From the NCBI RefSeq assembly GCF_044324875.1, contig NZ_CP172185.1: a stretch of DNA of 64,000 bases; one strand, given 5' to 3'. Below are positions 39,001 to 42,000 of this stretch, one piece after another. Every line of letters starts with the position of its first letter. Position 1 is the first letter of the stretch. The stretch is from Escherichia coli. Lineage in GTDB: Bacteria; Pseudomonadota; Gammaproteobacteria; Enterobacterales; Enterobacteriaceae. The position numbers are program-made.

Positions 39001-42000
39001 TAGCGGCATATTTATCATGTAGAGATTATTCGCCGCCCACATCATTGAACACACCACAAAAAGTAGCCGCGTATCTCGCTTTCTATGGATGGAGGGTAAA
39101 ATTTCTACGGGTTGGGTAACGACAGGAATATTTCTTTGTATTGATGGCAAAAACAACCAGACTATCAGCCCGCAAACAATAAATGCGATGGCAGCGGTGA
39201 GATACATCACTTTAAAACTAAATCCCATTGCCAGTTCATAAGCGAGCGGTGGCCCGATAACCCAGGCAAGCGAGATCTGAGCACGTAAAAATGTACTGAA
39301 CATGACCGTCTCGCGACCTGTTCTGTCAGCGTGTTCACGGGCGAGGGCGAACATTTGCGGGTTTGCGGTGGAAGCAAAACTACTCAGAAGTACGCCCGTT
39401 GAGAGGAGAATGAAGTAGTTGCGATTCCACGCAAAAAGCGTGCAGGCCAGCACTCCAAATAAGCAACATAGCAGAATCAGTAATTTACGGTCGCCTTGTT
39501 TATCGGAGTGCCTTGCCAGAAATTGACTGACCAGAATTCCCATAATAGCGCTACCGGTGAAGAAAAAACCTACCATTATAGGACGAGCTTTCAGTTCATC
39601 TGCGAGGAATATACTTAGGGTAGGAGTCTGAAGAGCGCCCGCAATACCCGTCAGAAAGGCGACAAGTAAAAATGCCGCGGCAGTGAGATCAAGTATTTTT
39701 GATGGAGTGGTAGCCGTTTTTTGCATTCTTCTGAATCACCGGGCGACAAAATATAACTGAGTTACAAATAAGTACCAGTCGAATGAGTATTGTATTAAGA
39801 ATTTTTGAGTATCGCTGATACAACCAGAAAACAATGCTAGCGCAATATTATAGGGCCAGCAATTGAGATTATTAGCAAAAGCATGTTAAGAATTAATCAC
39901 CGAATTTATATATTAATTATAGTAAGGCAATGAGCTATTTTTGATAGTAAAAATAAAACAAGTTGATTTGATATGTTAAATGAACAAATTAATCTTGATG
40001 GCAGTCTGATTATTGGTGAAGTTTATAGGTCAGTTTTTTTTGCCAGCGGTTAAAGGAATAGAATCGTCGTATAAAAAAGGTGTTCTGGGGCGTGTGAAAC
40101 AACATCTTCACCTTAATGGCGATACAGTTGGCTGAGAGCCAGCAGGGGGCAAATCACCTGCAAATAAACACGGCACATGCTGGCGCGCATATCGCGGATG
40201 CGTTCGAGGACAGAAGAACCGACAGGCGGATTCTTCAGTCGCTCATCGTCCATCACAAAACTTTTGATCAGGTATTCCTGAAGCCGATTGAATATTGAGC
40301 AGATAGAAAATCTCTGGAATGACAGTATTACAAGGGGTTGGAGAATGTCAGAAGAGGTATTTTGGCGGAAGATCACAGGAGTCGAATATAAGTATTAATG
40401 CATTGATCTTAAATAATTTGTATGTGTTGGATAAATGAGTAACCCCCATAAGAACCCCCAAATGATTTTGCATGAAGGAATGAAGCTAAAATACATGATT
40501 GAATCAATTCTTAGTACTCTATTGTGAAGGTAACATTTCCGGATAGTGTCTGGCTATAATATCATTTAGCCGATCAACCAGTTCTGGTTTCCTGAACGTG
40601 ATGTGCGCGGAGCCTTTCTTAAAGTATCTGATGCTGAACATCTCATCTTCATAGCACTCTTTACCCTGAACAGACCGGATGTGATCATCCAGATGAATGG
40701 TGATGTTTTCCCGGTTGTCGGGGATCGGTTTACCGCTGAACAGGTGCAACATTCTTTCCAGATCGGCGAGTCGGTCAGCCTGTTGCCCGGTGATAAGATG
40801 AAATCCCCACCGGTCCCACCTTACCAGGTTGTTAATGATAATTTTACTGCCAAATTTACAGGGGCAATTAGTTTTGTAATTCCAGCTCAGTCCCCTGAAG
40901 ACGTTGATCACCCCTCGCTCAAACACTTCATCTTTGTTCTGGTGCAGTTGTTTAAATGTGCTCAGAATGTTCGCTTCACTGATTTCCGGAAAATTATCGT
41001 ACTCCAGTGACCGGTACCATGTATCACGGGCCTGCGCATCCATTAATGACAGCATCCCGGAACGTTGCGTCAGGTCACGCCAGATTTCGCGGTCAAGGTT
41101 GCGGGTGATGGCTTTCATTGCTGTTTCAGGTTTCTCCATGAGCCAGCATCCGCAGCGAAAATCCTGTTTCATCGCCCAGTCCCGTGCGCTTTTACCACCA
41201 ATGCTTTTTGTCAGTACTGAGATTTCAGTCAGTTGCCGGATAAGCGTTTCGGTTTGTTGCAGTGCTGCATTCCGTACCGTCACAACGTGTCGGATACTGG
41301 TGGAGCAGATAACGTCCGTATTCCCGGTGACCACTTCCGGATGGGAGATTGTGATGTTTGACATTATCGGTTTCCCTTTTGGTTTATAAACGAAAACGCC
41401 AGCCGTATTCAGGCTGGCGTCAGTGGAATGAAGTCTGGTGAGTAAGGCTCACCGGTTCTGTTGCAGAAGCTGCAGTTGGCGCAGGGTATGGATATCCTCC
41501 CTCGCCTGTTCAATGCAGGGCAGCAGTGCTGCCGAATCCGTTTTATCCTCATCGTTGTCAAAGATAATTCCCGATTCGCAGTCGATATTGTCCTGCAGCC
41601 ACGCAATCAGAATATCCAGTGCTGTTTCCGTGGTTAATGATTTCATGTTGTTCCTGGTTACCAGTTGAAAGTGGGTAAACCCGGCAGGCATTCAGCGCTG
41701 GCATCCAGATGAATGAGACTGACGCCATAACGTCGGGTAAGTGTGACAACCAGACAACGGAACGTTTTTGACAGGCCCAGGCGCTTAAGCCGCAGAACCG
41801 GGTATGACCACGCATCGGTACGTAACAGATAGCCGCTACCTGTGAAATGAATCCATTCTGATTCACCAACGTCACTGGTCTGATGCGACAGCGAGTACAG
41901 CCAGGCGTTATCCTTTTCCGTGATATGTGCGGTACTGCAGCGTATGCCGGCAAGGGTTGCAAACGGTGGTAGTGTGCAGGTTGACTGTTGGTCGGATTCC

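Follow-up and report, generated by a model that had tools for sequence, protein, structure and literature searches.

A gene-less copy of an 18-nucleotide box in the selC-setC spacer of Escherichia coli as a likely promoter fossil in the regulon of ETT2/eip type III secretion

Background

The promoters that come closest to the one considered here are those bearing the MxiE box in Shigella flexneri and those controlled by InvF and SicA of pathogenicity island 1 (SPI-1) in Salmonella. MxiE boxes end 33 bp ahead of the mRNA 5' end (PMC3299695), and the InvF site overlaps the -35 element of sicA, sopB and sopE (PMC7595419). For the type III secretion system 2 of Escherichia coli (ETT2) a review from 2024 still gives the effectors as unknown (PMC11068852), and icaR and icaT, two genes with MxiE boxes, were not activated when EivF was co-expressed with YgeG (PMC9241512). 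Here we analyze a window of 64,000 nucleotides of E. coli DNA (NCBI RefSeq assembly GCF_044324875.1, contig NZ_CP172185.1), which holds five copies of an 18-nucleotide box. Four of these stand ahead of genes, and the fifth (copy 5), our subject, lies between setC and a repeat of the selC tRNA gene with no gene behind it.

The corresponding spacer of E. coli K-12 contains promoter island 3834632_331 (U00096.2), which is listed as bound by H-NS in every data set and as accompanying a gene predicted to be foreign (PMC3661553), and peaks of the RpoS and RpoH holoenzymes found by SELEX (systematic evolution of ligands by exponential enrichment) also lie inside it (PMC5493296). By our own conversion, which uses an offset of 1,977 bp between sequence versions, this island corresponds to about 39740-40070 of the window and contains copy 5. 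A preliminary description of the window had placed the spacer on the chromosomal side of an island junction at selC and had called it AT-rich with a copy of the motif, all of which is borne out by the coordinates, a GC content of 38.4% and an exact match. It had further proposed that the spacer is either the remnant of an acquired gene of the same regulon or the promoter of an unrecognized small RNA.

Results and discussion

A regulon-like box without a gene

Copy 5 belongs to a genuine, regulon-like motif family, but no gene follows it; the DNA downstream of it is poorly conserved, and the spacer in which it lies is ancient and widespread. We propose, with a probability of roughly 0.6, that it is the fossil promoter of a lost gene in the type III secretion regulon of ETT2/eip. 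The locus has the following features:

38542..39726, minus strand: setC, sugar efflux MFS transporter of 394 aa (open reading frame (ORF) list; setC annotation in matching E. coli genomes; homologues 99% identical)
39727..39929, no strand: setC-proximal AT-rich DNA with 29-35% GC, the better-conserved half of the spacer, within the H-NS-bound promoter island as mapped from K-12 (13-strain alignment; PMC3661553)
39930-39947, plus strand: motif copy 5, exact, ATGAGCTATTTTTGATAG, reading away from setC and towards selC
39948..40118, no strand: fast-evolving spacer 3' of the box, without conserved ORF, RNA structure or remnant of a box-linked protein (alignment, tblastn, folding)
39972..39977, plus strand: -10-like hexamer, TATGTT (4/6) in the source strain, 24 nt after the box (+25)
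39973..40053, plus strand: 26-codon ORF MLNEQINLDGSLIIGEVYRSVFFASG, the sole plus-strand ATG ORF just downstream, its ATG upstream of the predicted transcription start
40119..40283, minus strand: internal fragment of a RhuM-family gene, the K-12 pseudogene yicT (b4653), convergent with the box (Pfam, tblastn, RefSeq annotation)
40363-40386, minus strand: 24-nt copy of the selC (tRNA-Sec) 3' end, an att-type repeat at the island junction, identical to the K-12 selC 3' end (alignment)

The motif was recovered from words shared between sites in the window. It reads ATGAGCNNTTTTTGATAG, that is ATGAGC-NN-TTTTTGATAG over 18 nt, and its extended form of 18-20 nt can be written (A)ATGAGC[G/T][A/T]TTTTTGATAG(T). 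Five matches with at most 3 mismatches occur in the window (3917+, 5524+, 30691-, 35942- with 2 mismatches, and 39930+) against 0.57 expected by chance, and none of 100 shuffled sequences reaches five. Exact matches number four, where composition predicts 3e-5 for the window and 7e-7 for the spacer alone. With its flanks copy 5 reads cAATGAGCTATTTTTGATAGT, agreeing at all 16 specified positions and at both flanking bases (A on the 5' and T on the 3' side), and 22 nt of it, gcaATGAGCTATTTTTGATAGt, are identical to a copy ahead of yneK in K-12. When copy 5 was compared with the other copies and with E. albertii loci, the surrounding sequences proved unrelated and the box alone was common to them. 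On this ground we reject a repeated or mobile sequence and regard the box as a cis element. The motif string was not found in the literature that we searched, and reviews of ETT2 mention no box.

In a scan of one genome per species across 100,044 species, which returned at least 120 loci, the matches listed include five copies, each on a contig of its own, in E. albertii and a copy at ytfI in a second genome of E. coli, the others being single matches in unrelated taxa. Among the matches listed, multi-copy occurrence is thus confined to Escherichia.

Spacing relative to a putative -10 element gives the box the appearance of a promoter component. Of the 11 copies that have a gene, 10 are followed after 17-25 nt by the start of a hexamer resembling a -10 element; the copy before eicA has just 3/6 matches. 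At copy 5 the hexamer at +25 is TATATT in 12 of 13 aligned strains, the same hexamer at the same spacing as in the copy before eilA. The spacing logic of MxiE-box promoters (PMC3299695) would place the transcription start at about 39984. The position of the box relative to these hexamers fits both an end about 33 bp before the start and an overlap with the -35 element, the starts being in our case predicted from sequence.

The gene that such a promoter would serve is missing. All other copies that we examined stand 37-211 nt upstream of an ORF, and the gene lies downstream in box orientation at all 11 gene-linked copies, none of which has a divergent partner. No ORF of at least 90 aa starts in that interval and orientation at copy 5, the next feature being the convergent RhuM fragment, nor does a gene follow the box in any of the approximately 3,675 E. 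coli genomes that have the segment. Searches of the segment by tblastn with nine box-linked or neighboring proteins gave nothing significant, and RhuM is the sole protein trace. The preliminary description had noted only a 25-codon ORF after copy 5; the ORF at 39973..40053 is indeed the sole one, but it has 26 codons and its ATG is strain-specific. The other 12 aligned strains lack this ATG and read ATA, which makes the ORF an artefact and not a gene. A single A->G change at 39975, specific to the strain lineage, both turns TATATT into TATGTT and creates the ATG. An ORF of 40 codons with a TTG start (40013) is frameshifted in K-12 and E2865.

Conservation around copy 5

Variation between strains was measured in an alignment of 13 strains, with the following results for the share of variable columns and nucleotide diversity (pi):

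setC 5' coding region: variable columns 5.2%, pi 0.014
setC ATG to box: variable columns 5.4%, pi 0.015
box: variable columns 0/18, pi 0
box to RhuM fragment: variable columns 18.1%, pi 0.047
RhuM fragment: variable columns 9.2%, pi 0.033
RhuM fragment to selC: variable columns 17.9%, pi 0.047

Copy 5 is invariant in all 13 strains, and one further strain has an extra T. The DNA under the putative copy-5 transcript varies as does the spacer next to selC, at about three times the level of the setC side.

The segment that holds the box is the ordinary, widespread selC-setC spacer of E. coli and is not peculiar to the source strain. The setC ATG forms its left edge and the 24-nt selC remnant at 40363-40386 its right border, so that it spans exactly 39727-40362 (636 bp) from the setC start codon to the distal selC repeat. 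K-12 MG1655 likewise has 636 bp, with yicT among them, between the end of selC (3836316) and the start of setC (3836953). The segment is collinear with MG1655 3836317-3836952, yicT included, at about 96-97% identity in an end-to-end alignment, and the K-12 copy of the box lies at 3836732-3836749 on the minus strand. Across 5,426 complete E. coli genomes, the AT-rich 396 bp are present in 3,675 (full-length in 3,629), and the 42 nt around the box in 3,658, EAEC (enteroaggregative E. coli) 042 among them, about 91% of these being exact by our reading of the identity bands. Strain JNEC-KY178, in which selC is intact, the island is missing and eipB is frameshifted, is 100% identical over the 396 bp and must therefore share the A->G change at 39975. 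Copy 5 is thus best seen as an ancient fossil common to most E. coli and not as a feature of this island junction. The comparison with K-12 and relatives, which had been put forward as the check on the idea of a lost gene, thus turned out in two ways: the segment is the conserved K-12 spacer, as its refutation would have it, but the motif is present and conserved, and the idea survives.

Genes behind the other copies

The lost-gene proposal draws on what the remaining copies serve. Those in the window are the following:

3917..3934, plus strand: motif copy 1, exact, 211 nt 5' of a 431-aa ORF (4146-5441)
5524..5541, plus strand: motif copy 2, exact, 178 nt 5' of the ATG at 5720 of a 479-aa ORF (to 7159)
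30691..30708, minus strand: motif copy 3, exact, 74 nt 5' of eilA (ATG 30616), a HilA-like regulator
35942..35959, minus strand: motif copy 4, 2 mismatches, 60 nt 5' of eicA (ATG 35881), the first gene of eicA-eipBCD

The operon behind copy 4 encodes a SicA-like chaperone and translocators, and its eicA is intact in the window. A further exact copy lies 85 nt 5' of ygeF-ygeG(-ygeH) inside the ETT2 cluster of JNEC-KY178 (34621-34638 of the extracted locus), and this cluster also encodes an intact eivF. K-12 lacks the ygeF-ygeG box, which was removed by a deletion ending just before the -10 region. K-12 does have exact copies located exactly 63 nt 5' of the uncharacterized genes yneK (1615682-1615699) and ytfI (4437626-4437643). 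In E. albertii each of the five copies stands 37-202 nt ahead of an ORF. These box genes form single-gene islets in conserved backbone, at rpsT/ribF-nhaR, ytfJ-cysQ, yneJ-yneK and after chbG, and two of the five ORFs encode pentapeptide-repeat proteins with weak, below-cut-off matches to models of the effectors PipB, PipB2 and SopA.

Copies 1 and 2 sit in an islet of 35% GC between ilvN and uhpA, and the two orphan ORFs behind them match no Pfam or NCBIfam family. We regard both as candidate ETT2 substrates. The two ORFs (4146-5441 and 5720-7159) are paralogues of each other, with 26% identity (E 4e-24).

Several observations on the individual loci may be added. The yneK copy overlaps the stop codon of ptrR, and the ytfJ-cysQ site of E. 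albertii carries the box with a different gene, which encodes a 385-aa pentapeptide-repeat protein. The box before eilA suggests feedback of an InvF-type activator onto a HilA-like regulator; we know of no equivalent feedback in the SPI-1 cascade of Salmonella. The ETT2 cluster of JNEC-KY178 has intact eivF, ygeG and ygeH together with frameshifts in sctC and a YscQ-family gene. Strain MS14384 (1012481-1012870) has the eip island in full, with eilA, eicA and the genes for the translocators, and no ETT2, glyU being directly followed by yqeG; the eip locus can thus persist without the apparatus genes. The window further contains, at 18611-28867, an intact inverse autotransporter gene (iatC/air/eaeX) of 3,418 aa with long internal repeats, in which 11-12-mers recur at intervals of about 1,455 bp and about 2,328 bp around 22.4-26.8 kb.

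The likely activator

The box agrees with the Shigella MxiE box GTATCGTTTTTTTAnAG at 11 of 16 specified positions (our own alignment, with the consensus from PMC9769918). Copy 5 differs from that consensus at 5 of the 16 and is not an MxiE box in the strict sense of at most 3 differences. A scan of the window with the MxiE consensus found one site at 3 mismatches against 0.53 expected, which is at chance level, and the box is accordingly related to the MxiE box without belonging to its family. Taken together with its predicted position over the -35 element, the resemblance indicates that the box is most likely an operator for an AraC-type activator of the InvF/MxiE family. The most likely binder is EivF, with a chaperone of the SicA/IpgC type, EicA or YgeG, as putative co-activator. 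Promoters of this class need, for activation, both the AraC-family activator and a free translocator chaperone, and the genes eivF, ygeG and eicA are intact in related strains. The inactivity of EivF with YgeG on icaR and icaT fits a box specificity distinct from that of MxiE.

A proposed history of copy 5

Based on these observations we propose the following course of events. The box would overlap the -35 position and work with a -10 hexamer about 20-25 nt downstream. An AT-rich islet with such a promoter and a gene transcribed towards selC would once have stood in the interval from selC to setC. Its gene would have been lost by rearrangement at selC, a hotspot of integration, the same insertion and deletion events leaving the 165-bp internal RhuM fragment. 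What would remain today is the box, the -10 hexamer and about 170 bp of decaying DNA. This relic would have been fixed before the setC-carrying lineages of E. coli diversified, and it would now lie at the edge of the H-NS-bound, AT-rich region upstream of setC. Copy 5 most likely does nothing at present, or at most gives rise, in the presence of the activator, to spurious transcription of non-coding DNA. Of the two proposals in the preliminary description, a remnant of a lost regulon gene best fits the non-random box, the -10 hexamer kept in 12 of 13 strains and the pseudogene-like variation behind it, although neither a coding remnant nor a gene-bearing genome accompanies it.

Several points weigh against this proposal. 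No genome with a gene still behind copy 5 was found among the complete E. coli genomes, at the E. albertii setC locus or on a contig with an 81%-identical SetC. With the coding remnant missing as well, we infer the lost gene from the behavior of the other copies. Invariance of the box is no proof of selection, the probability of observing no change in 18 positions being about 0.37 at the upstream rate and about 0.03 at the downstream rate. The DNA upstream of E. albertii setC has no box, the homologous position reading AAGAATATTTGATAC, which may at best be a decayed copy. Finally, the sole published co-expression test of EivF with YgeG that we found was negative, the genes used being those with MxiE boxes (PMC9241512).

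Alternative explanations

A different binder is the alternative that touches copy 5 least, since the box would be real and copy 5 still an orphan site if it were recognized by EilA, YgeH or another factor and not by EivF. Control by EilA has been reported for eaeX, eivF, eivA and the eip genes (PMC7058095, PMC11068852), and the box before eilA itself could serve autoregulation. MS14384, having eilA in its eip island but no ETT2, has no eivF either, and the negative co-expression result, obtained on MxiE-box genes (PMC9241512), points in the same direction. Set against this are the resemblance of the box to the MxiE box and its location, relative to the -10-like hexamers, at the place where a -35 element would be. 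The box also precedes the genes for both SicA-like chaperones, eicA and ygeG, just as the InvF site precedes sicA, and control of the eip genes by EilA can be indirect via eivF. HilA sites are of the direct-repeat type, and the box, a single asymmetric site, is unlike them. We therefore consider a binder other than EivF unlikely. Copy 5 might instead be a live site for setC, whose ATG lies 203 bp away and which is the only gene adjoining the box, with the activator either relieving H-NS silencing or activating divergently. The box is itself invariant and borders the conserved half of the spacer next to setC; in K-12 this region is bound by H-NS and has RpoS/RpoH SELEX peaks near setC (PMC3661553, PMC5493296), and MxiE has been proposed to counter silencing by H-NS (PMC9769918). 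If this were so, a sugar efflux pump would be wired into a secretion regulon. We hold it to be quite unlikely, as the box points away from setC where 11 of 11 gene-linked copies serve a downstream gene with no divergent partner, the distance of 203 bp is far beyond the -35-overlapping geometry of this activator class, E. albertii has setC without a box upstream, and setC itself is frameshifted in some strains.

The preliminary description's second proposal, that copy 5 is the promoter of an unrecognized small RNA or, by extension, a small protein between the box and the RhuM fragment, finds some encouragement in the box with a good -10 hexamer (TATATT) in most strains, in a T8 run that comes after a weak AU-rich hairpin, some 60 nt past the predicted start, and in TTG and GTG starts at 40013 and 40016, which at 65-68 nt after the box approach the 63-nt spacing at yneK and ytfI. 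A promoter is plausible, but the marks of a small RNA gene, be it a terminator, a conserved sequence or structure or a known family, are absent from this DNA. An Rfam search gave nothing above noise, the minimum free energy is no better than that of shuffled sequences (z +0.42), and a terminator scan found none on the plus strand. Folding of the alignment yielded compensatory changes in 0 of 37 consensus pairs and a covariation term of -0.29. No other part of the spacer varies more than this interval, 18% of whose columns are variable; the 26-aa ORF has a strain-specific ATG, K-12 and E2865 have a frameshift in the 40-aa one, and the K-12 annotation has no non-coding RNA there. We thus regard a small RNA or protein as highly improbable, and this proposal is not supported. 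As for a chance or convergent match that was never functional, DNA of 26-30% GC that is rich in T-runs and has no gene might seem apt to produce one. The expectation of 7e-7 exact matches in the segment, the extension of the match to 22 nt identical with the yneK copy, the -10 hexamer at the spacing of the regulon and the confinement of multi-copy occurrence to Escherichia among the matches listed leave it next to no probability. The fossil promoter of a lost regulon gene accordingly remains our preferred explanation.

The selC junction and the history of the locus

On the plus strand the sequence at 40363-40386 is TGGCGGAAGATCACAGGAGTCGAA, the reverse complement of the final 24 nt of tRNA-Sec. 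A direct copy of the tRNA 3' end thus marks the distal island border, as at island junctions in tRNA genes, the intact selC lying outside the window; ARAGORN found no intact tRNA within it. To the right of the repeat stands a CP4-like island with DUF4942, CbtA/YeeU and Ag43 genes. It occupies 40387-64000 and extends past the window end, being therefore longer than 23.6 kb. The island is 99.6-99.9% identical to islands in avian pathogenic and other E. coli, the adjoining backbone being about 96-98% identical to most E. coli.

GC content, 49.6% in the window as a whole, is uneven along the segment, with 26-35% in the setC-proximal 300 bp (39727-40026) and 58% in 40127-40226. The RhuM fragment is truncated at both ends. 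It matches Pfam PF13310 with E 1.6e-10 over profile positions 50-108 of 252, and a tblastn search with an intact 345-aa RhuM covers aa 121-182 with E 1.5e-19 at window 40119-40283 on the minus strand. The Prokaryotic Genome Annotation Pipeline labels the selC-proximal half of the segment as an incomplete RhuM family protein. RhuM genes at selC are known from Salmonella SPI-3. The literature that we searched held nothing relevant on yicT.

The selC flank has been altered repeatedly. In an alternative allele, selC is followed by an intact rhuM of 345 aa, another selC repeat, which is degenerate, an ORF of 165 aa and yicL, with neither setC nor the box. Strain 24AR0180 (4866-7046 of the extracted locus) carries this allele, with the degenerate selC 3' repeat at 5792-5848; its rhuM is 75% identical in DNA to the yicT fragment, which indicates separate acquisitions. 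Other E. coli have the insertion sequence IS1 in place of setC, an IS1 deletion, and in one strain the border of a defense island cuts the RhuM fragment. In E. albertii setC is 90% identical, and the DNA upstream of it (5626-6000 of the extracted locus) can be aligned with 39727-39890 of the window (score 43 against 18.9+-2.6 for shuffles) and weakly beyond. IS1 lies 375 bp 5' of setC there, and the locus stands beside kbl-tdh/waa genes, not selC. On the contig with the 81%-identical SetC another gene lies upstream, and the box is absent.

Implications

By itself copy 5 carries little weight, being probably a dead promoter in a spacer common to K-12 and two-thirds of E. coli. It does show that the box is old, fixed before the setC-carrying lineages split, and that the selC flank has undergone repeated turnover, and it indicates that a box can outlast its gene and even its activator. 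Considered alongside the remaining copies, it favors the box as a simple sequence mark by which the ETT2/eip regulon may be traced, and it accounts for part of a K-12 promoter island so far described only statistically.

We suggest tentatively, at somewhat less than even odds, that the box is the EivF operator and marks the ETT2 regulon genome-wide, which we did not find described in the literature searched. Should this hold, K-12 yneK and ytfI and the orphan copy 5 would be fossils of an ancient repertoire of ETT2 effectors, the orphan ORFs between ilvN and uhpA and the pentapeptide-repeat proteins of E. albertii would be its living members, and copy 5 would mark the loss of one effector islet at the selC hotspot. 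The question of which proteins ETT2 secretes would then become a short, testable list of genes.

Comparison with known systems

The selC-proximal half of the segment is the same RhuM pseudogene fragment as K-12 yicT (b4653). It has no relation to the motif, runs convergently to the box and reflects an insertion and deletion history of its own. The promoter islands of K-12, one of which contains copy 5, are H-NS-bound, AT-rich, transcriptionally silent and located beside foreign genes (PMC3661553). Work on them describes the density of promoter-like signals and names neither a specific operator nor a link to type III secretion.

With the InvF-SicA promoters of Salmonella SPI-1 (sicA, sopB, sopE) the box shares the arrangement, predicted in our case, of a monomer-sized AraC-family site over the -35 element (PMC7595419). 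One copy stands directly before the operon of translocators and chaperone, sicA-sipBCDA in Salmonella and eicA-eipBCD together with ygeF-ygeG here, and others before dispersed genes for effectors, which are candidates here. The likeness is one of position and gene context. Unlike in the InvF-SicA system, a copy here also precedes the gene for the HilA-like regulator, eilA.

The MxiE-box promoters of Shigella flexneri share still more. Both have a single AT-rich box of 17-18 bp with a central T-run ending in A-AG and 11 of 16 positions in common, placed just 5' of the -10 element, here a -10-like hexamer, at what would be the -35 position. Both kinds of box are scattered before single genes that are low in GC and horizontally acquired, copies of both are kept in commensal E. 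coli, K-12 included, without the activator, and the target DNA of both is AT-rich and silenced by H-NS (PMC3299695, PMC9769918, PMC9241512). They differ in the left half of the box, which is ATGAGC-- here and GTATCG- in the MxiE box, and in the genes served, which are linked to ETT2/eip and not to the invasion plasmid pINV; our box, moreover, is a putative operator, and no gene follows copy 5. A close parallel is offered by icaR/yjgL, icaT/yfdF and yccE, the fossil genes with MxiE boxes on the chromosomes of E. coli and Shigella, with another box and another secretion system in our case. Copy 5 would be the extreme case of this fossil-box situation, in which the promoter alone survives, and the motif family to which it belongs is the more interesting object.

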